Source of the DNA: a virus
Taxonomy: Duplodnaviria; Heunggongvirae; Uroviricota; Caudoviricetes
Strand: one strand, 5' to 3'
Length of the DNA stretch: 21,873 nt
IMG/VR virus record: IMGVR_UViG_2529293246_000003
Coordinates: 1-21,873 of that record
This document shows, one piece after another, positions 1 through 21,873 of this stretch (positions within the stretch are counted from its first letter, which is position 1; every line of letters starts with the position of its first letter). Below the pieces are notes generated by a model. The model did no database searches and was not told the DNA's origin. It saw nothing but the letters and a program-made list of their open reading frames with translations. Both the position numbers and the translations under genes were made by a program.

Positions 1-100
1 GGATTTCTGATAACAGAAAGGCCGGGAAATACCCAGCCTCGCTTTGTAACGGAGTAGATGAAAGTGATCGCGCCTACCCGGATATTATCGCGAGGATGCT

Positions 101-781
101 TCATCGCCATTGCTCCCCAAATACAAAACCAATTTCAGCCAGTGCCTCGTCCATTTTTTCGATGAACTCCGGCACCATCTCGTCAAAATTCGCCATGTAC
201 TTTTCATCCCGCTCAACCACGACATAATGCAGGCCTTCACGCTTCATTCGTGGGTCATAGTTGGCAAAGTACCAGGCATCTTTTCGCGTCACCCACATGC
301 TGTACTGCACCTGGGCCATGTAAGCCGACTTTATGGCCTCGAAACCACCGAGCCGGAATTTCATGAAATCCCGGGAGGTAAACGGGCATTTCAGCTCAAG
401 GCCATTGCCGTCACTGCATAAACCATCGGGAGAGCAGGCGGTACGCATACTTTCGTCGCGATAGATGATCGGGGATTCAGTAACATTCACGCCGGAAGTG
501 AATTCAAACAGAGTTCTGGCGTCGTTCTCGTACTGTTTTCCCCATGCCAGCGCCTTAGCATTAACTTCCGGAGCCACACCGGTGCAAACCTCAGCCAGCA
601 GGGTGTGGAAGTAGGACATTTTCATGTCAGGCCACTTTTTTCCGGAGCGGGGTTTTGCTATCACATTGTGAACTTCTGAAGCGGTGATGACGCCGAGCCG
701 TAATTTGTGCCACGCATCATCCCCCTGCTCGACAGCTCTCACGTCGATCCCGGTACGCTGCAGGATAATGTCCGGTGTCAT
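101..781 (-). CDS. exo: lambda-type 5'-3' exonuclease (Red alpha)
   Basis: 226-aa ORF whose translation I recognise as essentially lambda Exo over its full length; its start overlaps the bet stop (778-781). Confidence 0.95.
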
Positions 782-1563
782 GCTGCCACCTTCTGCTCAG
801 TGGCTTTTTGTTTCAGGAATCCAAGAGCTTTCACTGCTTCGGCCTGTGTCAGTTCTGACGATGCACGAATGTCGCGGCGAAATATCTGGGAACAGAGCGG
901 CAATAAGTCGTCATCCCATGTTTTATCCAGGGCGATCAGCAGAGTGTTAATCTCCTGCATGGTTTCATCGTTAACCGGAGTGATGTCGCGTTCTGGCTGA
1001 CGTTCTGCAGTGTATGCAGTATTTTCGACAATGCGCTCGGCTTCATCCTTGTCATAGATACCAGCAAATCCGAAGGCCAGACGGGCACACTGAATCATGG
1101 CTTTATGCCGTAACATCCGTTTGGGATGCGACTGCCACGGCCCCGTGATTTCTCTGCCTTCGCGAGTTTTGAATGGTTCGCGGCGGCATTCATCCATCCA
1201 TTCGGTAACGCAGATCGGATGATTACGGTCCTTGCGGTAAATCCGGCATGTACAGGATTCATTGTCCTGCTCAAAGTCCATGCCATCAAACTGCTGGTTT
1301 TCATTGATGATGCGGGACCAGCCATCAACGCCCACCACCGGAACGATGCCGTTCTGCTTATCAGGGAAGGCGTAAATTTCTTTCGTCCACGGATTAAGGC
1401 CGTACTGGTTGGCGACGATCAACAATGCGATGAACTGCGCATCGCTGGCATCACCTTTAAATGCCGTCTGGCGAAGAGTGGTGATCAGTTCCTGTGGGTC
1501 GACAGAATCCATGCCGACACGTTCAGCCAGCTTCCCTGCCAGCGTTGCGAGTGCTGTACTCAT
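778..1563 (-). CDS. bet: lambda-type single-strand annealing protein (Red beta)
   Basis: 261-aa ORF, recognisably lambda Bet ([17 protein letters not shown]...); lies between gam and exo as in lambda. Confidence 0.95.
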
Positions 1564-1568
1564 CCGCT

Positions 1569-1865
1569 TTATACCTCTGAATCAATATCAACCTGGTGGT
1601 GAGCAATGGTTTCAACCATGTACCGGATGTGTTCTGCCATACGCTCCTGAAACTCAACATCGTCATCAAATGCACGAGTAATGGCTTTTTTGCTGGCCCC
1701 GTGGCGTTGCAAATGATCGATGCAGAGTGATTCAAACAGGTGCTGTGGAAGACCTTTTTCCATGTCGTCTGCCAGTTCTGCCTCTTTCTCTTCACGGGCG
1801 ATCAGCTGGTAGTGACGTGCCCAGCTCTGAGCCTCAAGACGATCCTGAATGTAATAAGCGTTCAT
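1569..1865 (-). CDS. gam: RecBCD inhibitor Gam (98-aa short form)
   Basis: 98-aa ORF matching the C-terminal 98 residues of lambda Gam ([20 protein letters not shown]...); AGGAG Shine-Dalgarno about 9 nt upstream; no longer in-frame start is available. Confidence 0.9.
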
Positions 1866-1940
1866 GGCTGAACTCCTGAAAATGGCTGTGAAAATATCGC
1901 CCGCGAAATGCCAGGCTGATTAGGAAAACAGGAAAGGGGA

Positions 1941-2231
1941 TTAGTGATTCAGGCCGTTACCGCGTCCGTCGAGAAAAACTTCCACGAGCAAATCACGGGT
2001 ATAAGTGCGCTCGATGCCGCGATGCAGATATAGCCGTCCGCGTAAATTAGCTGATGCAGTCCAGGTACCATCTTTGTGTTTGACCAGCATTCCTGGCATG
2101 ACCGCACCTCGATTAACGGTCTGCGTTCCGTAATGTTGATGAACCATAAAAACTCCTGCCCGTAAGCTGGGCTGCTGAACATATAGAGACTTCTGCGCGT
2201 ATTCAGGCGGTGGATGGCCGCCGGTTGTCAT
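1941..2231 (-). CDS. hypothetical protein, first ORF of the early-left operon (kil/N slot)
   Basis: The 136-aa ORF in the track begins with TTG at 2351; an internal ATG at 2231 ([11 protein letters not shown]...) has a GAGG 10 nt upstream and gives 96 aa. No family recognised; a 77-aa ORF in another frame overlaps it, so the frame choice is uncertain. Confidence 0.3.
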
Positions 2232-2351
2232 AACTAAGCCGCCTCGTTGAAGCGACTGAGGTATGAAGTGTTGAGTTGATTTCAGCTGGTCACACCGACG
2301 TTCACGCGTCCGCTTCACCCCTCGCACTCCCCGGAGCCTGCTGAAATTCAA

Positions 2352-2589
2352 GCTGCGGATCTAAGCGGTCATCGCAACGGTGAATCAGGTGATTGCCGTA
2401 TCGTTGTGTTGTTGCGATGAATTCATTTAAAACTATAGTTGTTTTATCGTCAACAACAAAAGTTTTTTTTGTTGGTTGTTTTAGATATAACTGGTTGTAT
2501 TTAAGATGGATTTATTTTGTGACTTGCATCGCATAGCGATAACTGAAGCGAGGTCGTGGTGGTTTTTTGAACGGTGTGTGATGAGGAGA
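2352..2589. promoter_or_regulatory. putative OL/pL-like operator-promoter region
   Basis: AT-rich 240-bp non-coding gap at the head of the minus-strand exo-bet-gam operon; contains several GGTTGT/ACAAC half-site-like motifs (2452-2456, 2473-2478, 2493-2498) resembling the inverted repeat between cI and cro. Confidence 0.35.
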
Positions 2590-2619
2590 AGGCAAAAGAA
2601 ACCCGGCATGGCAGCCGGG
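2590..2619 (-). terminator. factor-independent terminator closing the cI-ORF303 transcription unit
   Basis: Plus-strand CCCGGC(2602-2607)-ATGGCA-GCCGGG(2614-2619); on the minus strand the hairpin is followed by TTTCTTTTGCC, immediately after the ORF303 stop codon (2627-2629). Confidence 0.5.
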
Positions 2620-2626
2620 ATGAGAA

Positions 2627-3538
2627 TTAACGAGCCTTAGGGAGATTTGGGCGCTGCAAATTTTCTAAAACTTCAATAGCCTTAGTATTTTCAATTACTT
2701 TCTGCTGAACTTTATCAGCAAGATAATCTTTGAAACCCTTTGGAATGTATTCTTCTCTTAGCCATCTGCGAAATTCACCTAAAGCCTCTTCCGGATAAAT
2801 ATTGGCAGGAACTTTTCCTGCTTTACTTTGAGGAAACCAATCTGGATATTCATGTGGATATTTTTTCACATCGCCATATTTTTCACTAAGATTGTTTTTC
2901 TTCCAGTGGATTGCCCATCGTCCACCCACACTAATATCAGGTACTGTTTTTGGGCCAAGCTCAAATCCTGCATTGATAAGTGGAACTGTGATATCGACCA
3001 TCTCTCTAAAAACACTGAAGAAACCTGCAGGAATTTTGTCATTAAGCAATATTCGCTCTTGAAAACATTTCCAGGCGCCACTAATTGGATTTCTCGGGTC
3101 AATACCTACACTTTTGTATATATAGTCTCGAAGTGTTTGACGTGCTAATAGGCGGTAATTTTTCCTGGCTATAGTGCTATCAACCTGTGTGGCATCGAAA
3201 GCATAATATTCAAGAATTGCCATGCATACGGCATCTGGATAGGCATGTGTATCACCAAATGCGCCTCCGCCGACAACGGAATATAATTGATCACCTTTAA
3301 AACCATTCTCTGAAAGAAGCTCCGCAATTCTCCTTCCTCTGGGTTTATTCTTTTCTATTGACCAGTTGGTGGTGAGAGGTAAAAGTGTGGTGTGATCGAC
3401 CCCACATAACCTAGATAATCCACGGAGACTCAAAAATGGAGTTCCATCATTGAGAACACCCATTTGTACACCGTTTACTTCAACTTCTTTTACAGGAAAT
3501 AAAGACATTTCTTGTTGGTGGGCGGACTGATGGCTCAT
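2627..3538 (-). CDS. hypothetical protein of unknown function, co-directional with and directly downstream of cI (rexAB-equivalent slot)
   Basis: 303-aa ORF with ATG start and no competing ORF; 71-bp gap to the cI stop with no hairpin; markedly AT-rich compared with flanking genes. No motif assignable by eye; the N-terminal stretch VNGVQMGVLNDGTPFLSLRGLSRLCGV is only faintly reminiscent of KilA-N/Bro-N-type domains. Confidence 0.8.
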   Translation of the reverse strand: MSHQSAHQQEMSLFPVKEVEVNGVQMGVLNDGTPFLSLRGLSRLCGVDHTTLLPLTTNWSIEKNKPRGRRIAELLSENGFKGDQLYSVVGGGAFGDTHAYPDAVCMAILEYYAFDATQVDSTIARKNYRLLARQTLRDYIYKSVGIDPRNPISGAWKCFQERILLNDKIPAGFFSVFREMVDITVPLINAGFELGPKTVPDISVGGRWAIHWKKNNLSEKYGDVKKYPHEYPDWFPQSKAGKVPANIYPEEALGEFRRWLREEYIPKGFKDYLADKVQQKVIENTKAIEVLENLQRPNLPKAR

Positions 3539-3609
3539 GACATTATCTCTTTGATTTTTATTTATTTTAACTGGTGGTTGTTTGTAGGTAAGTCTATCTT
3601 GTGTTTTAG

Positions 3610-4299
3610 CTAACCATGCTTCCTATATGTTTGCGGCATGCTCCCAATAACTTTCCCGAAGATAAACACCCGGTTCATCTCGTCTTTCTCGATCGGGTCC
3701 CACGGTGAGTAGCTCTTGTTATCAGAGATAACCAGCAGCTTATCCTTCATCATTTGCAGGCGCTTTACATGGGCGGTGTCGTCGTACAGAAACGCATAGA
3801 TGCCATCACCGTCGAAAGATTTAACCGTGATATCAACGAACAGCAGATCACCTGGTTCGATCGTTCCTGACATGCTGTCACCGCGTACGTTAATGATGCG
3901 GATATTTTCTGCCTTCCTACCATCGAACATGTGACGAGCATCGTCAAACGAGTACTCAACCGAGCGTAGAACTTCTACAAACTCACGGTTGATGACTCCC
4001 GGCCCGGCACTCACTTCTATATCAAGAACGTCAATCTTAAAGTATTTGGAATGGCTGACAGTTGATGGTATTGGTTGCACTGTACTGTCTGACATATTTC
4101 CAACGCCAGAAGATAACCATTCTGCGCGCACACCCAAAGCGTTCGCGATCTCCACGATTTTAGTTGTTTGGTTAGCTTTCCCTGTTTCGATTTTCTGAAT
4201 AGCAGCTTGGCTAACCCCGACCAAATCCCCAAGCGCCTTTTGTGTAAGGCCTCGCGCTAATCTGGCTTCTTTAAGTCTTTCTGAGAGTGTTGTTTTCAT
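3610..4299 (-). CDS. cI: CI-type prophage repressor (N-terminal HTH, C-terminal LexA/S24 autopeptidase domain)
   Basis: HTH segment LTQKALGDLVGVSQAAIQKIETGK; S24 catalytic Ser in RGDSMSGTIEPGDLL and Lys in HVKRL. Start placed at the internal ATG 4299 (MKTTLSERLKEARL..., 229 aa) because the track's ATG at 4365 runs into the cro promoter; no Shine-Dalgarno is present, consistent with a leaderless PRM-type transcript. Confidence 0.9.
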   Translation of the reverse strand: MKTTLSERLKEARLARGLTQKALGDLVGVSQAAIQKIETGKANQTTKIVEIANALGVRAEWLSSGVGNMSDSTVQPIPSTVSHSKYFKIDVLDIEVSAGPGVINREFVEVLRSVEYSFDDARHMFDGRKAENIRIINVRGDSMSGTIEPGDLLFVDITVKSFDGDGIYAFLYDDTAHVKRLQMMKDKLLVISDNKSYSPWDPIEKDEMNRVFIFGKVIGSMPQTYRKHG

Positions 4300-14580: not shown

Positions 14581-14606
14581 TCTGGACAAAGAACAGGAAT
14601 ATATTT

Positions 14607-14957
14607 ATGCCTCCTCGAACCCCAAAAGCCTGCCGCGTTCGCGGCTGCCCCCATACCACCACTGACTCGTCAGGCTATTGCGAAAGGCACAAAAGCGAAG
14701 GCTGGAAGCAATACAAGCCAGGCCAGTCCCGTCATCAGCGCGGTTATGGTTCGAAGTGGGACAGTATCCGCGCGCGCGTCCTGAAGCGTGACAAAGGTTT
14801 ATGTCAGTTATGTCTGCGTGCCGGTGTGGTGCGTGAAGCTAAAACCGTTGACCACATCATCCCTAAAGCGCATGGCGGCACCGATGCAGACAGTAATCTG
14901 CAGAGCCTGTGCTGGCCGTGCCATAAGACGAAGACGGCCCGTGAACGGCTAAAGTGA
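14607..14957 (+). CDS. HNH endonuclease (terminase-associated, HK97 gp74-like)
   Basis: 116-aa ORF with Cys pairs (CRVRGCPH...CERH; CQLCLRAG...CWPCH) and an HNH core (VDHIIPKAHGG...N); located just upstream of the terminase genes. Confidence 0.85.
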   Translation: MPPRTPKACRVRGCPHTTTDSSGYCERHKSEGWKQYKPGQSRHQRGYGSKWDSIRARVLKRDKGLCQLCLRAGVVREAKTVDHIIPKAHGGTDADSNLQSLCWPCHKTKTARERLK

Positions 14958-14983
14958 TAATAATTCTCAACTGCCTGAGGGGA

Positions 14984-15043
14984 GGGGCGGGTCAAATCCC
15001 TGTGGCCTGATGTCTTCCGGACTGCCCGCCCCATCGTTTTTTT
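14984..15043 (+). other. GC-rich hairpin plus T-tract between the HNH and terminase genes (terminator and/or cos-region structure)
   Basis: GGGGCGGG(14984-14991)...CCCGCCCC(15025-15032) followed by ATCGTTTTTTT; HK97-like phages place cos between the HNH gene and the small terminase gene. Confidence 0.3.
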
Positions 15044-15082
15044 ATACCCGCGAAAAATGAAATTTAACCTGGAGTGCCGCAT

Positions 15083-15568
15083 ATGGCTGGAACGGCGGGG
15101 CGTTCCGGGCGTCGCCCCAAGCCAACGGCGCGCAAGGCGCTGGCCGGAAACCCCGGCAAGCGAGCCCTGAATAAAGATGAACCTGTTTTTACGCCCATCA
15201 AAGGTGTTGAGCCACCGGAGTGGTTCGCTGAAGAAGATCTCCCTCTCGCCACGATCATGTGGCAACTGACAACCAAAGAACTCTGCGGTCAGGGCCTGCT
15301 GTGCGTGACTGACCTGGCGGTACTTGAGCGGTGGTGTGTGGCCTATGAGTTCTGGCGACGTGCCGTGAAAAATATTGCCAGACAGGGTAACACCATCACC
15401 GGTGCAATGGGTGGCATGGTCAAAAATCCGGAGCTGACCGCCAAAAAAGAACAGGAGTCCGAGATGAGCAGCACGGGGGCAATGCTCGGACTCGACCCCA
15501 GCAGCCGCCAGCGTCTGATTGGCCTGGCGGGGAAGAAGAAAGCCACTAACCCGTTTCTGACAATCTGA
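15083..15568 (+). CDS. terminase small subunit
   Basis: 161 aa from ATG 15083 (GGAG 8 nt upstream; the track's start is GTG 15074); basic N-terminus; immediately precedes the large terminase. Confidence 0.8.
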
Positions 15569-15581
15569 AAATCATCGAATC

Positions 15582-17315
15582 ATGAGCCGGAAATCTTACC
15601 CCAACGTAAATGCTGCCAATCAGTATGCCCGTGATGTTGTGCGCGGAAAGATTGTGGCCTGCCAGTTTGTGATTCAGGCCTGCCAGCGCCATCTTGATGA
15701 CCTGATGGCGGAAAAAAGTAAGTCGTTTCGTTACCGCTTCGACAAGGACCTGGCTGAACGGGCCGCCAAATTTATTCAGCTGTTGCCGCACACCAAGGGT
15801 GAGTGGGCATTCAAGAGGATGCCCATCACGCTGGAGCCGTGGCAGCTATTTGTGGTCTGCTGTGCGTTTGGCTGGGTCAATAAAGGGTCCCGGCTGCGCC
15901 GCTTCCGGGAGGTGTATACCGAAATCCCCCGTAAGAACGGCAAATCGGCAATCTCTGCCGGTGTTGCCCTGTATTGTTTTGCCTGTGATAACGAGTTTGG
16001 CGCGGAAGTGTATTCCGGTGCCACGACAGAGAAACAGGCGTGGGAAGTCTTTCGCCCGGCGCGACTGATGTGTAAACGCACACCCATGCTGACGGAAGCG
16101 TTCGGGATTGAGGTTAACGCCTCAAACATGAATCGTCCGGAGGATGGCGCGCGGTTTGAACCGCTGATCGGTAACCCCGGTGATGGTTCATCACCCCACT
16201 GTGCGGTGGTGGATGAATATCACGAGCACGCCACCGATGCGCTTTACACCACGATGCTTACCGGGATGGGGGCGCGACGTCAGCCACTGATGTGGGCCAT
16301 TACTACTGCCGGGTACAACATTGAGGGGCCGTGCTACGACAAGCGACGGGAAGTTATCGAGATGCTCAACGGGTCGGTACCCAACGATGAACTGTTCGGG
16401 ATCATCTATACCGTTGACGAAGGCGATGACTGGACCGACCCGCAGGTGCTGGAAAAAGCTAACCCGAATATTGGCGTGTCGGTTTATCGCGAATTTTTGT
16501 TAAGTCAGCAGCAGCGTGCGAAAAATAACGCCCGTCTGGCAAACGTCTTTAAAACAAAACACCTCAATATCTGGGTGTCGGCGCGTTCGGCGTATTTCAA
16601 CCTGGTGAGCTGGCAGAGCTGCGAGGATAAATCACTGACCCTTGAGCAGTTCGAGGGGCAGCCGTGCATTCTGGCCTTTGACCTGGCCCGTAAGCTGGAT
16701 ATGAACAGCATGGCGCGACTTTATACCCGCGAGATTGACGGTAAAACGCATTACTACAGTGTGGCCCCGCGTTTCTGGGTACCGTATGACACGGTGTACA
16801 GCGTCGAGAAAAATGAAGATCGCCGGACAGCCGAACGCTTTCAGAAATGGGTGGAAATGGGCGTCCTGACCGTTACCGATGGTGCAGAGGTGGATTATCG
16901 CTACATCCTCGAAGAGGCCAAAGCGGCGAACAAAATCAGCCCGGTCAGCGAGTCACCCATCGACCCCTTCGGGGCGACCGGGCTGTCACATGACCTTGCT
17001 GATGAAGACCTGAATCCCATCACCATCATTCAGAACTACACCAACATGTCCGACCCGATGAAAGAGCTGGAAGCGGCAATTGAATCGGGGCGCTTTCATC
17101 ATGATGGCAATCCCATCATGACCTGGTGTATCGGCAACGTGGTCGGCAAAACCATTCCGGGTAACGATGATGTGGTGAAGCCCGTCAAAGAGCAGGCGGA
17201 AAACAAAATCGATGGTGCAGTTGCGCTGATTATGGCGGTTGGCAGAGCCATGCTGTATGAGAAAGAAGACACTCTGTCCGACCACATTGAGTCCTACGGG
17301 ATCCGCTCGCTTTAA
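15582..17315 (+). CDS. terminase large subunit (HK97-type)
   Basis: 577-aa ORF of typical size and position; contains ATPase-like and nuclease-like acidic segments ([13 protein letters not shown]; [11 protein letters not shown]). Confidence 0.9.
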
Positions 17316-17326
17316 CTGAGGTAATT

Positions 17327-17509
17327 ATGATCATGCTGATTCTCGCGCCTCTGGTGGGCGTGCTGGGGGTGCTTTTGCTGGCGTATGGTGCCTGGCTGAT
17401 TTATCCCCCGGCGGGGTTTGTTGTTGCCGGGGCGTTGTGCCTGTTCTGGTCGTGGCTGGTGGCGCGATATCTCGACCGTACACAGTCGTCTGTCGGCGGA
17501 GGTAAATAG
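17327..17509 (+). CDS. small membrane protein between terminase and portal
   Basis: 60-aa ORF with GAGGTAA Shine-Dalgarno and two hydrophobic segments; its stop TAG overlaps the portal GTG start (TAGTG). Confidence 0.45.
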
Positions 17510-18750
17510 TGTTCTTTTCGGGATTATTTCAACGAAAAAGTGACGCACCGGTGACCACGCCAGCAGAGCTGGCGGATGCTATCGGGTTGTCCTACGACAC
17601 CTATACCGGAAAGCAGATCAGCAGCCAGCGGGCCATGCGACTGACGGCGGTTTTTTCCTGTGTCAGGGTGCTGGCGGAGTCGGTCGGGATGTTGCCCTGC
17701 AACCTGTATCACCTGAACGGCAGCCTGAAGCAGAGAGCCACTGGCGAACGTCTGCATAAGCTGATCTCCACGCATCCCAATGGCTATATGACGCCGCAGG
17801 AGTTCTGGGAGCTGGTGGTCACCTGTCTGTGCCTGCGGGGAAACTTTTACGCCTACAAAGTGAAAGCATTTGGCGAAGTGGCTGAACTGCTGCCCGTCGA
17901 TCCCGGCTGTGTGGTACCGAAGCTTAACAGTAGCTGGGAGCCGGTCTATCAGGTCACATTCCCGGATGGCTCCACGGATGTACTGAGCCAGGAAGATATC
18001 TGGCATGTGCGCACGCTGACGCTGGACGGACTGGTGGGGCTGAATCCCATCGCCTATGCCCGCGAGGCAATATCGCTGGCGGCAGCGACCGAAGAGCACG
18101 GGGCCAGACTGTTCAGCAATGGCGCGGTGACGTCGGGTGTGTTGCGTACAGAGCAGACGCTGTCAGATCAGGCTTATGAGCGCCTGAAGAAAGATTTTGA
18201 GGAGCGTCACACCGGGCTTGGCAATGCTCACCGCCCGATGATCCTTGAGATGGGGCTGGACTGGAAGTCGATGGCGCTGAACGCCGAGGACAGCCAGTTC
18301 CTGGAAACCCGCAAGTTTCAGCTTGAAGAAATCTGTCGTCTGTTCCGGGTGCCATTGCACATGGTGCAGAACACCGATCGCGCCACCTTCAACAATATCG
18401 AAGAGCTGGGGCTGGGATTTATCAACTATTCACTGGTGCCGTATCTGACCCGCATTGAGCAGCGGATCAACACCGGACTGGTACGAAAAAGTAAGCAGGG
18501 CGTTTATTACGCCAAATTTAACGCCGGGGCGTTACTGCGCGGGGATATGAAGTCCCGTTTTGAAGCCTACGCCACCGGGATCAACTGGGGAATTTACTCT
18601 CCCAATGACTGCCGCGACCTGGAAGATATGAATCCGCGTCCCGGTGGTGATGTCTATCTCACACCGATGAACATGACCACGAAACCCTCCGATGGCAGTA
18701 AAGCCGGTAAGCAGAAGGATAACGCCAATGCAGACGAAACAACGTCTTGA
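17509..18750 (+). CDS. portal protein (HK97 family)
   Basis: 413-aa ORF with GTG start and GGCGGAGG Shine-Dalgarno; size, position and sequence character fit a portal protein. Confidence 0.9.
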   Translation: MFFSGLFQRKSDAPVTTPAELADAIGLSYDTYTGKQISSQRAMRLTAVFSCVRVLAESVGMLPCNLYHLNGSLKQRATGERLHKLISTHPNGYMTPQEFWELVVTCLCLRGNFYAYKVKAFGEVAELLPVDPGCVVPKLNSSWEPVYQVTFPDGSTDVLSQEDIWHVRTLTLDGLVGLNPIAYAREAISLAAATEEHGARLFSNGAVTSGVLRTEQTLSDQAYERLKKDFEERHTGLGNAHRPMILEMGLDWKSMALNAEDSQFLETRKFQLEEICRLFRVPLHMVQNTDRATFNNIEELGLGFINYSLVPYLTRIEQRINTGLVRKSKQGVYYAKFNAGALLRGDMKSRFEAYATGINWGIYSPNDCRDLEDMNPRPGGDVYLTPMNMTTKPSDGSKAGKQKDNANADETTS

Positions 18751-19378
18751 TGTACCGCTGAGTCTGAAATCTGTCAGTGACTCCGGTGAGTTTGAAGGGT
18801 ATGGCTCCGTCTTTGGTGTAAAGGACAGCCACGATGATGTGGTGATGTCCGGGGCATTTGCTGCTTCCCTGCGGGCGTGGAGTGACAGAAAAGCGTTACC
18901 TGCGCTGCTCTGGCAGCACCGCATGGATGAACCCATCGGTGTTTACACCGAAATGAAGGAAGACGATGTCGGGCTTTACGTCAGGGGACGGTTGCTTATT
19001 GATGATGATCCCCTCGCAAAACGCGCACATGCACACATGAAGGCCGGTTCGTTAACCGGCCTTTCTATTGGGTACGTCCTGAAAGACTGGGAATACGACC
19101 GGAGCAAAGAAGCCTTTCTGCTGAAAGAAATCGACCTCTGGGAAGTCAGCCTGGTGACGTTCCCGTCTAACGACGAGGCGCGGATCAGCGACGTCAAGAA
19201 CGCACTGGCCCGCGGGGAAATCCCCGAACAGAAAAAAATCGAAAGAGTCCTGCGTGATGTCGGACTCTCCCGTACCCAGGCCAAAGCATTCATGGCCGGG
19301 GGCTATGGCGCACTATCCCTGCGCGACGCTGAGGATGTGGGCTCTGCACTGAATGCACTGAAAAATCTGAACTTCTAA
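18728..19378 (+). CDS. prohead maturation protease (HK97 gp4-like)
   Basis: 217 aa from ATG 18728 (AAGGA Shine-Dalgarno), overlapping the portal 3' end; lies between the portal and capsid genes. Confidence 0.85.
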   Translation: MQTKQRLDVPLSLKSVSDSGEFEGYGSVFGVKDSHDDVVMSGAFAASLRAWSDRKALPALLWQHRMDEPIGVYTEMKEDDVGLYVRGRLLIDDDPLAKRAHAHMKAGSLTGLSIGYVLKDWEYDRSKEAFLLKEIDLWEVSLVTFPSNDEARISDVKNALARGEIPEQKKIERVLRDVGLSRTQAKAFMAGGYGALSLRDAEDVGSALNALKNLNF

Positions 19379-19392
19379 TCAGGAGAAATACG

Positions 19393-19905
19393 ATGGCGGT
19401 TGATATTAAAGATGTCGAACAGGTCGCGCAGGAGCTGCAGCAGAAGTTTGACGACTTCAAAGCAAAGAACGACAAGCGCGTGGATGCGATTGAGCAGGAA
19501 AAAGGCAAGCTTGCCGGGCAGGTGGAAACCCTGAACGGGAAACTCAGCGAGCTGGAAAATCTCAAAAGCGACCTTGAAAAAGAGCTGCTTGAGCTGAAAC
19601 GTCCGGCAGGTGGAGCGCAAAATAAACTGGCCACCGAGCATAAAGAGGCGTTTGTGGGCTTCCTGCGTAAAGGCCGTGAAGACGGTCTGCGCGATCTGGA
19701 GCGTAAGGCATTGCAGGTGGGTACCGATGAAGACGGTGGCTACGCCGTGCCGGAAGAACTGGATCGCAACATTCTTAACCTGCTGAAAGATGAAGTGGTG
19801 ATGCGTCAGGAAGCCACGGTGATCACCGTTGGCGGTTCCGACTACAAAAAACTGGTGAATCTGGGCGGTACGGCTTCCGGATGGGTGGGGGAAGCAATCC
19901 AGTAA
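19393..19905 (+). pseudogene. major capsid protein, N-terminal fragment only (delta-domain coiled coil plus start of the mature domain)
   Basis: 170-aa ORF; residues 1-70 are coiled-coil-like, as in an HK97-type delta domain; the ORF stops at 19905 and the downstream sequence is unrelated (inverted tail-fibre remnant), whereas HK97-fold capsid proteins are typically over 300 aa. Confidence 0.7.
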
Positions 19906-20237
19906 GCAAAAGGATTTATTCCTTGCTCAGTCACAGATGACATCAGGGAAAATTGCGATGGTGAAACAGGTAATGCTGCAAAACTAACCATTGTTGACAC
20001 ACCTGACCGTGCATTATCGTACGATGCAACAACACAATAATTGGTATTGCTGAAAGATATCGGCAGGGTGATATTTACAGGTGAGCCTAATGGCCCTGAT
20101 GCTGATATTCCCATTTGAATGATGGTTCCATCAGGCAATTTTCTCCAGCGATTAGAACTCGGATTTCTTTTCCAGGCTGACATATCCGGTATCTGATTTT
20201 CTCCTGTACCCACATCCCTTTTCGCCGCTTCTCCCAA
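19906..20237 (-). pseudogene. tail-fibre variable C-terminal segment remnant (Sv'/StfE-like), promoterless and abutting the crossover site
   Basis: Minus-strand ORF (19842-20237 in the track) begins inside the gix/pix-like site next to pin and reads away from it; its far end runs into the truncated capsid gene. Confidence 0.45.
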
Positions 20238-20254
20238 ACCAACCTTTTAGAAAA
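20229..20254. other. gix/pix/hix-like 26-bp invertase crossover site
   Basis: TTCTCCCAAACCAACCTTTTAGAAAA; imperfect dyad with the AAACC...TTTT core seen in gix/hix sites as I recall them; 55 bp upstream of the pin start. I found no second, inverted copy in the window. Confidence 0.55.
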
Positions 20255-20308
20255 TGCAGTTATTCGGCTCAGATGGCATGATCCCGGATTTTTACAGGGT
20301 TATTTCTC

Positions 20309-20863
20309 ATGCTTATTGGCTATGTACGTGTGTCAACAAATGACCAGAACACAGATCTACAACGTAATGCGCTGAACTGTGCAGGATGCGAGCTGATTTT
20401 TGAAGACAAGATAAGCGGTACAAAGTCCGAAAGGCCGGGACTGAAAAAACTGCTCAGGACATTATCGGCAGGTGACACTCTGGTTGTCTGGAAACTGGAT
20501 CGGCTGGGGCGCAGTATGCGGCATCTGGTCATTCTGGTTGAGGAGTTGCGCGAACGTGGCGTTAATTTTCGCAGCCTGACGGATGCTATTGATACCAGTA
20601 CCCCAATGGGGCGCTTTTTCTTTCATGTGATGGGGGCCCTGGCTGAAATGGAACGAGAACTGATTGTTGAACGAACAAAAGCTGGACTGGAAGCTGCTCG
20701 CGCACAGGGACGAATTGGTGGACGTCGTCCCAAACTTACACCAGAACAATGGGCGCAGGCCGGACGATTAATTGCAGCAGGAATTCCTCGCCAGAAGGTA
20801 GCGATCATCTATGATGTTGGTGTATCGACACTGTATAAGAAGTTTCCGGCCGGAGATAAATGA
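20309..20863 (+). CDS. pin: serine-recombinase DNA invertase (Pin/Gin/Hin family)
   Basis: 184-aa ORF, recognisably near-identical to E. coli e14 Pin (MLIGYVRVSTNDQNTDLQRNAL...); catalytic Ser in YVRVSTNDQ. Confidence 0.95.
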   Translation: MLIGYVRVSTNDQNTDLQRNALNCAGCELIFEDKISGTKSERPGLKKLLRTLSAGDTLVVWKLDRLGRSMRHLVILVEELRERGVNFRSLTDAIDTSTPMGRFFFHVMGALAEMERELIVERTKAGLEAARAQGRIGGRRPKLTPEQWAQAGRLIAAGIPRQKVAIIYDVGVSTLYKKFPAGDK

Positions 20864-20920
20864 AACCGTAGCACGTCGTATGCAAGATCGTGCTGCGGTT
20901 TATGCTTACCACTTGAAGAT

Positions 20921-21790
<870 letters not shown>

Positions 21791-21873
21791 CTAACCCTTT
21801 GAATTTACATAGCGCAAAAAGATACCTTTCCTCATAATGTGAGCTAATTTTATGTTTCGTTTGATGATCGGGT

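Follow-up and report, generated by a model that had tools for sequence, protein, structure and literature searches.

A lambdoid prophage with an interrupted head module

The stretch of DNA analyzed here (hereafter the window) is 21,873 bp long and represents the entire contig AJWR01000035.1 of Escherichia coli 541-1 (assembly GCA_000264215.1). Mechanically called ORFs and their Pfam matches were compared with annotated relatives, which yielded the map of a lambdoid prophage (Table 1). The early region comprises, in order, exo, bet, gam, a KilR-like ORF, a 303-aa cargo gene, a cI-like S24 repressor gene, a cro-like gene, a YdaT-like gene, O, P and a ren-like gene. The middle region consists of a cargo slot followed by a Bro/P22AR gene, ybcN, ninE, ybcO, rusA, ylcG and Q. 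Holin, endolysin and Rz genes open the late region and precede HNH, TerS, TerL, ymfR, portal and S78 prohead protease genes and a capsid ORF of 170 aa, after which the right end carries a tail-fibre fragment, pinE and a gene for a GIY-YIG protein.

Table 1. Positions of the main features in the window, numbered from its first base.
Feature	Position	Strand	Remarks
exo	101-781	-	Early region; the contig begins at exo
HNH endonuclease	14607-14957	+	Pfam
TerS	15074-15568	+	Pfam
TerL	15582-17315	+	Pfam
ymfR	17327-17509	+	Intact, upstream of the break
Portal	17509-18750	+	Pfam
S78 prohead protease	18692/18728-19378	+	Pfam
Capsid ORF	19393-19905	+	170 aa; EIL67034.1, annotated 'putative major capsid protein'
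HK97-type major capsid gene, 5' remnant	19393..19893	+	Codons 1-167 of 401
Deletion junction	19892..19893		Dinucleotide AA in both parental sequences, 2-bp microhomology
Foreign codons A-I-Q and stop	19894..19905	+	Antisense of the tail-fibre remnant
Tail-fibre variable segment remnant, stfE'-like	19892..20228	-	Gp53-like_C (PF21882, E=3.3e-12); PHROG tail-fibre families
pix-type crossover site TTCTCCCAAACCAACCTTTTAGAAAA	20229-20254	+	55 bp upstream of the pinE start codon
pinE, serine DNA invertase	20309..20863	+	184 aa, full length; Pfam Resolvase (E=8e-52) and HTH_7 (E=1e-15)
GIY-YIG gene, CMoRE/PD-T4-3	20921..21694	-	257-aa gene call; the mechanical ORF extends to 21745

The original prediction described a defective element that keeps intact recombination, immunity, lysis and packaging-enzyme genes, and this description was borne out. 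The products of exo, bet, gam, the cI-like and cro-like genes, O, P, Q, holin, endolysin, HNH, TerS, TerL, portal, protease and PinE were all full length when compared with relatives, Rz being judged indirectly. The latter is a divergent 130-aa allele assigned to PHROG 214 (Rz-like spanin); since a 130-aa lysis gene with the same Pfam match as Rz (DUF2570) was found again in another thrW prophage, this Rz is probably allelic rather than truncated. The genes from HNH to the protease (14607..19378) showed 94.8-100% identity to their counterparts in full-length relatives and lie intact and in the usual order, so that the HK97-type head module is normal from terminase to protease, as had been predicted.

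The capsid gene is cut after codon 167

Alignment of the capsid ORF with the 401-aa major capsid proteins of full-length relatives showed that residues 1-167 are identical and set the breakpoint after codon 167 (19892/19893), which accounts for an ORF that stops after 170 codons. At the nucleotide level the remnant is 100% identical to the capsid gene of the prophage L002 up to 19893. Translation across the break reads GWVGEAIQ* in the window versus the native GWVGETDTRSQ... of the relatives. The remnant contains the delta/scaffolding domain and about the first 55 positions of the capsid fold, the Pfam model Phage_capsid (PF05065) covering residues 115-168 of the ORF, equivalent to profile positions 1-55 of 280. 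A functional HK97-fold capsid gene would span the ca. 280 profile positions of PF05065, corresponding here to ca. 401 aa, and the 170-aa ORF falls well short of this. By comparison with these relatives, EIL67034.1 is classed as a pseudogene fragment.

The rest of the capsid gene was absent from the window in any frame, as judged by tblastn with the full capsid protein and with its C-terminal 234 residues. Two readings that the original prediction had itself set against a truncation were thereby removed: a frameshifted yet complete capsid gene is ruled out by the lack of a full-length capsid in any frame, and a separate scaffold gene is ruled out because the 170-aa product is the N-terminus of the 401-aa capsid protein.

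A tail-fibre remnant with a single crossover site next to pinE

The stretch downstream of the break had been predicted to be a minus-strand tail-fibre segment opening in a pix-like site beside pin, and this was confirmed by the Gp53-like_C match and by the site upstream of pinE. The tail-fibre remnant is 99.95% identical to record L001, in which the annotated CDS runs 11 nt past the position of the junction; hence the copy in the window lacks the last three codons and the stop. Its frame opens (...KVGLGE...) within the 26-bp pix-type site, and no constant N-terminal tail-fibre part is left for it to join.

Several lines of evidence bear on the nature of this site. The pinE-proximal site of the cryptic prophage e14 of K-12, TTCTCCCAAACCAACGTTTATGAAAA, has 3 mismatches in 26 positions to TTCTCCCAAACCAACCTTTTAGAAAA and the same 55-bp spacing, and e14 has a further site within stfP, in inverted orientation. 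In L001, where the segment is intact, a 26-mer mismatch scan located an inverted partner site in the tail-fibre gene (18470-18495, at the LGLGE motif); in L002 and L003 the constant part of stfP finishes in a similar site. The inverted repeat published for the 1797-bp P segment of e14, CCTTCTCCCAAACCAA (PMC12529663), was found in the window at 20227-20242 with one mismatch. Because of the likeness and spacing to the e14 site, the inverted partners in K-12 and L001 and the match to the published repeat, the sequence at 20229-20254 is assigned as a pix-type crossover site.

As predicted, neither tail genes nor a second crossover site could be detected. In mismatch scans of the window the next-best 26-mer had 8 mismatches, and the published 16-bp repeat occurred only once. 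The loose core pattern AAACCNNNGTTT was uninformative as a site search, since the window's own site does not fit it. Tblastn with the ORFs of the L002 stfP region and other tail proteins, together with the ORF list, revealed no stf constant part and no tfa genes in the window, and tblastn with 18 proteins of L002 revealed no head-completion, tail or baseplate genes there. In the blastn comparison with e14, Mu or P1 invertible regions that had been proposed as a check, the tail-fibre remnant matched the phage collection at ca. 84% identity, solely in the stretch adjacent to the invertase and the first bases of the invertase gene, and the variable segment itself gave no useful alignment to e14, Mu or P1.

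PinE has 178 of 184 residues identical to those of K-12 PinE and is 100% identical to the PinE proteins of L001 and of the prophage in EC02 (NZ_CM169499.1; L011). Invertase genes of the Hin/Gin family contain a Fis-dependent recombinational enhancer within their 5' part; as pinE agrees with its K-12 counterpart at 98% of the first 200 nt, the gene in the window has probably kept this enhancer. With the Hin/Gin/Cin/Pin (Din-family) switches the window shares an invertase with resolvase and HTH_7 domains, an adjacent upstream 26-bp site and an alternative tail-fibre C-terminal segment whose frame starts in the site. Unlike them, it has one site and no expressed constant part to switch, so that of the components of a Din-type switch the invertase is present and the pair of inverted sites, the constant part and the cognate tfa genes are missing. 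In e14, loss of either repeat has been shown experimentally to abolish inversion (PMC12529663). Since inversion needs two sites, and a single pix is found here with no constant part and no tfa, PinE would have no substrate in cis and the inversion switch appears to be dead in cis. Pin enzymes act in trans between Qin and e14, PinQ acting on e14 (PMC12529663); by analogy, PinE could act in trans on other prophages.

The junction is a real deletion allele

The breakpoint was resolved by three-way alignments of the window with L002 and L003 as left parent and with L001 and L011 as right parent. The window tracks the L002/L003 capsid gene through ...GGGTGGGGGAA (19893) and tracks L001 from AAGCAATCC... 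(19892) on, the overlap of the two parents being limited to AA. Megablast matches behaved in the same manner, those of the left side ending at 19893 and those of the right side beginning at 19892. Among 5,426 complete E. coli genomes, more than 1,000 records covered at least 80% of the left-side query; the best matches listed reached 19893 and were annotated as portal, HK97 protease, phage major capsid protein and ymfR. Right-side matches in complete E. coli genomes were annotated as gp53-like domain protein, pinE and LEM-3-like GIY-YIG protein.

No record ran across the break among the 5,426 complete E. coli genomes in megablast searches with the junction region and with the whole window, and an exact 42-nt junction pattern had no match in 185,579 species-representative genomes (GTDB). 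The junction was detected elsewhere through exact look-up of the 170-aa product only, which returned several other contigs, among them a metagenome scaffold of 76.7 kb from ENA (L004) and the Logan assemblies L006 and L007. All three showed 0 mismatches to the window across the overlap, which amounts to 12.5 kb for L004. On L004 and L006, the 170-aa product is followed by pin and the GIY-YIG gene, and L007 is too short to reach them. The known spread of the junction is thus five contigs from a few samples, which may represent one clone. Because a join with a 2-bp overlap was reproduced in several assemblies, the junction is a real deletion allele and not a misassembly.

Undeleted relatives define the missing span

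The prophage in EC02 carries the genes on either side of the break in one continuous arrangement. Its left part runs from HNH, TerS, TerL, ymfR, portal, protease and a 401-aa capsid gene to connector, head closure and tail terminator genes. Next are the sheath, tube and tape measure genes, a gene for a DNA circularization protein, and the baseplate genes V, gp46 and J together with YmfQ, and the right end holds a tail fibre gene, tfa, tfa' (-), a gp53-like stf' (-), pinE and the GIY-YIG gene, with a yagP remnant, paoDCBA and yagU further on. Window positions 14606-19893 aligned with 255-5542 of L011 at 98.9% identity and positions 19892-21871 with 20001-21980 at 98.6%. The two blocks are collinear, so that the window corresponds to the EC02 arrangement with 14,460 bp taken out. 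The missing span contains capsid codons 168-401, 20 whole genes and the 3' tip of stf'; relative to EC02, the losses comprise head completion, sheath, tube, tape measure, baseplate, the expressed tail fibre with the second pix, and both tfa genes.

Further relatives show comparable combinations. The circular 44.8-kb pCE-O153H30-A (L008) contains int, xis, exo/bet/gam, cI/cro, O/P, Q, lysis genes, HNH and terminase, and ymfR, portal, protease and capsid genes, and continues with tail genes, a tail protein, pinE and avs2 back to int. The prophage L002, located at ssrA, pairs the same head with a Mu-type tail and has, in addition, stfP, what is left of pin and the GIY-YIG gene of the window. Like the window, EC02 and pCE-O153H30-A possess the module that runs from HNH through terminase, ymfR, portal and protease to capsid, with proteins 98.9-100% identical, and they share its pinE; in EC02 the CMoRE gene and the chromosomal neighbours, pao and yagU, are shared as well. 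Unlike the window, both keep the 401-aa capsid, the head-completion genes and a Mu-type tail. EC02 also keeps the tail fibre and both tfa genes, and in pCE-O153H30-A the tail protein adjacent to pinE is annotated as incomplete. Because EC02, pCE-O153H30-A and L002 each combine the head module, a tail, pin (a remnant in L002) and a cargo gene, the lambdoid part and the pin module of the window are viewed as the two ends of one genome architecture. By this architecture the intact relatives resemble SfV-like phages, with an HK97-like head, a Mu-like tail, thrW integration and gtr genes; gtr genes are present in the relative H37.

The H1 prophage, whose right arm is 99.95% identical to that of the window, has a head and tail of a different type, with a DUF1073 portal and a DUF2184 capsid, and the pin/cargo arm is exchanged among phage types. 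As the right arm matches H1 so closely and yet the H1 head and tail modules differ, these prophages are considered mosaic and the ancestor is not uniquely nameable.

Capsid-forming phage satellites (cf-PICIs) are defined by head genes without tail genes, with a complete head set that includes a functional major capsid protein. An element of this type was considered for the window and rejected, the capsid being truncated, the head-completion genes missing and the loss of the tail explained by the deletion relative to EC02.

Comparison with e14, cargo gene and chromosomal setting

In K-12, e14 has the order ymfR, a beeE portal fragment fused to a jayE baseplate-J fragment, ymfQ, stfP, tfaP, tfaE, stfE', pinE and mcrA. 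The window resembles it in having ymfR followed by the portal gene, a stf/tfa invertible segment (here a remnant), pinE and a type IV restriction cargo gene, and also in being defective through an internal deletion of structural genes, seen in e14 as the beeE-jayE fusion. The late-region features of the e14 family were accordingly found, namely ymfR (98% identical to annotated YmfR) with the portal gene, and a pinE orthologue with its proximal pix. The differences are equally clear. In e14 both pix sites are present and the P segment of 1797 bp continues to invert (PMC12529663), whereas in the window the constant stf part has been lost along with the second site and the two tfa genes. The deletion in e14 extends from portal to baseplate J and that in the window from capsid to stf'; the cargo is McrA in e14 and CMoRE in the window; and the early region of the window is lambda-type (exo/bet/gam, O/P, Q), unlike that of e14. 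Finally, e14 lies between icd and icdC and the locus of the element in the window is probably thrW/pao: instead of integration at icd, the right flank in the junction-bearing scaffold L004 shows an AraC gene, a yagP remnant, paoDCBA and yagU together with a thrW-derived attR. On these comparisons the element is regarded as an e14-like relative and not as e14.

The GIY-YIG protein matched the PADLOC model PD-T4-3 over model positions 1-255 of 256 (E=2.3e-140), and its residues 17-274 aligned with residues 5-262 of PDB 9U75 (E=4.5e-175). CMoRE belongs to the type IV restriction endonucleases and has hmC/ghmC DNA as its specific target (PMC12923530). The protein in the window matches CMoRE/PD-T4-3 (PDB 9U75, 9U7U) over its whole length with no notable difference, and is identified by these matches as a CMoRE/PD-T4-3 restriction enzyme. 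Its gene is a neighbour of the break and not part of the deletion junction. With BstA and CMoRE, the element retains two defence genes. Downstream of pin, mcrA is found in K-12 e14, the CMoRE gene here and avs2 in the circular pCE-O153H30-A.

The chromosomal setting could be read from longer records. On L004, the GIY-YIG gene is followed by an AraC-type regulator gene, an rve remnant, a LysR remnant, paoDCBA and yagU. A 56-bp repeat of the 3' end of the tRNA-Thr gene thrW (attR) is present at 14624-14679 of L004, where one copy was seen, and at 24125-24180 of L001, and in the L001 genome the prophage starts at thrW-int beside proA. Since the thrW repeat lies downstream in L004 and L001 and the L001 prophage begins at thrW-int, pinE and the GIY-YIG gene lie inside a thrW-bounded element. 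Judging from attR and the relatives, the prophage is probably integrated at tRNA-Thr thrW, its left end (int, attL) lying outside the contig.

Origin of the defective prophage

There is a strong case that the window arose by one illegitimate-recombination deletion of ca. 14.46 kb within a single e14/SfV-like prophage, probably residing at thrW. The parent would have combined early genes of the lambda type and a head of the HK97 type with a contractile tail of the Mu type, a Pin-invertible tail-fibre segment and defence cargo. Through the shared AA, the deletion would have joined capsid codon 167 to the spare, inverted tail-fibre segment, 11 nt short of the end of the latter. RecA-independent illegitimate recombination or replication slippage may have been the cause, and neither Pin nor an IS element would be involved, since the break is a single one with microhomology of 2 bp, carries neither IS nor pix sequence and lies ca. 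337 bp from an intact pix. An IS-mediated deletion was likewise discarded on the grounds that no IS is found at the junction and both sides run straight into parental sequence.

The original prediction had spoken of a deletion or fusion that joined a lambdoid prophage to an e14-like remnant. Of these, the deletion stood, in the form of the EC02 arrangement minus 14,460 bp, and the fusion of separate elements did not, both parts belonging to one phage genome type. A fusion across two prophages, for instance tandem SfV-like and H1-type lysogens at thrW, is accordingly considered unlikely. It would agree with the 99.95% identity of the right arm to H1, a prophage of another head and tail type at the same locus with the same int module, and with the exchange of the pin/cargo arm among phage types. 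However, an undeleted single prophage with the required order exists at the same locus, and its two blocks are about equally divergent from the window (98.9 and 98.6% identity); moreover, a fusion would need a far larger deletion that also removed the whole region from int to lysis, and L004 has a single attR copy. That the contig could be an assembly chimera of two prophage regions was suggested by its being a short draft contig whose junction is found in no complete E. coli or GTDB representative genome, yet the same junction with its flanks occurs with 0 mismatches in the ENA scaffold and in two Logan assemblies of other runs, and assembler chimeras form at repeats whereas only 2 bp are shared here; the likelihood of an artefact is therefore put at next to nothing.

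An active-looking invertase and a pix beside the break invite the idea that Pin itself made the deletion by recombining pix with a pseudo-site in the capsid gene. Such an event should have left a hybrid site at the junction, but the break is ca. 337 bp from an intact pix, the capsid sequence at the break is unlike pix and the best other match in the window, with 8 of 26 mismatches, lies elsewhere, all of which leaves this route with a negligible probability. It is also very unlikely, if somewhat less so, that the 170-aa product is a selected stand-alone scaffold or decoy, such as a dominant-negative delta-domain fragment directed against related phages. The whole delta/scaffolding domain is kept, with the Pfam capsid domain beginning at residue 115, the late operon upstream is intact and the element retains two defence genes. 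Nevertheless, 100% nucleotide identity to ordinary capsid 5' ends followed by three out-of-context codons is the pattern of a recent, unselected truncation, and all known copies are identical, giving no sign of selection.

Consequences of the deletion

After a single deletion of this kind, the element would be unable to form capsids, tails or particles, because the capsid fold, the head-completion genes and the tail genes are missing. The early, lysis, terminase and defence genes (BstA, CMoRE) would remain potentially functional, and the element may live on, as e14 does in K-12, in the form of a cryptic prophage or a defence island. A more elaborate proposal, in which the remnant is kept as a defence island (BstA, CMoRE), the orphan PinE works in trans and the capsid fragment poisons superinfecting relatives with HK97-type heads, has a slim chance of being correct; it draws on gene content, and the identity of the copies precludes assessing selection.

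The event itself is ordinary prophage decay of a textbook kind. For annotation, it means that this prophage should be scored as defective, and pin as an orphan invertase without a segment to flip in cis. The position 3' of pin is a swappable slot for anti-phage genes. The window offers a base-resolved case of how an e14-type cryptic prophage may come from an intact thrW phage through a single microhomology deletion while its defence cargo (BstA, CMoRE) is kept, which fits the established view of cryptic prophages persisting as defence islands.

Contig boundaries and features of relatives

The window spans an entire draft contig, whose left end lies 100 bp past exo (window 1-100) and whose right end lies 128 bp past the longest GIY-YIG ORF (window 21746-21873). 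Scaffold L004, a metagenome scaffold sharing the window's deletion junction, extends rightward past the latter end. Both contig breaks were probably caused by sequence repeated among the lambdoid prophages of the strain, so int and attL lie outside the window.

Record L008 (NZ_CP172337.1), a 44,831-bp circular sequence annotated as plasmid pCE-O153H30-A, has the gene order of a complete phage of the window's family, running from int to tail and then to pinE and avs2; the tail protein adjoining pinE is annotated as incomplete. Rather than a plasmid, this record may represent a phage genome that is circular or has been excised. In L031 (GCA_965256515.1 contig CBDGKR010000004.1), the region 341-4233 belongs to a relative's prophage integrated beside proA. 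There, tail-sheath, tail-terminator, head-closure and connector genes lie about 2 kb or less from the genes at the P/ren position, separated from them by a single gene of 472 aa; this arrangement looks like the product of another internal deletion, or of a rearrangement, in the same prophage family.

Downstream of the intact prophage of E. coli EC02 (L011), the thrW 3' repeat was found in two copies (29554-29601 and 34907-34935). Around and between these copies lie an integrase remnant, IS elements and a gene for a peptidase, which suggests that EC02 carries a second thrW-targeted island in tandem.

Cargo genes and their positions

Cargo features of the window
Feature	Window coordinates	Strand	Matches
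BstA abortive-infection protein gene, 303 aa	2627-3538	-	PADLOC E=7e-122; PHROG 6287 E=7.5e-141
Two-gene cassette, products of 186 aa and 150 aa	7733-8742	+	PHROGs 12521 and 13877 (function unknown)
CMoRE/PD-T4-3, GIY-YIG gene adjoining pinE	20921-21694	-	PDB 9U75 E=4.5e-175

The BstA gene has the kil/gam region on one side and the gene for the cI-like repressor on the other. In relatives the cargo of this slot is very unlike BstA, comprising DUF7946/7947, HipA_2 with DUF3037, ASCH, DUF6414 and a Panacea-domain gene.

The two-gene cassette occupies the ren-to-ninB slot and was also found in two further records, L015 and L030; its second product showed a weak glycine-zipper match. Since the same slot holds SNIPE, TIR_2 or AAA_15/RloB genes in relatives, this pair is a candidate for an uncharacterised defence or moron cassette.

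The GIY-YIG gene beside pinE is that of CMoRE/PD-T4-3, a type IV restriction nuclease dependent on hmC/ghmC. The slot that it occupies, downstream of pin, contains McrA in e14 of K-12 and Avs2 in pCE-O153H30-A, which makes it look like a site where anti-phage genes are exchanged as cargo.
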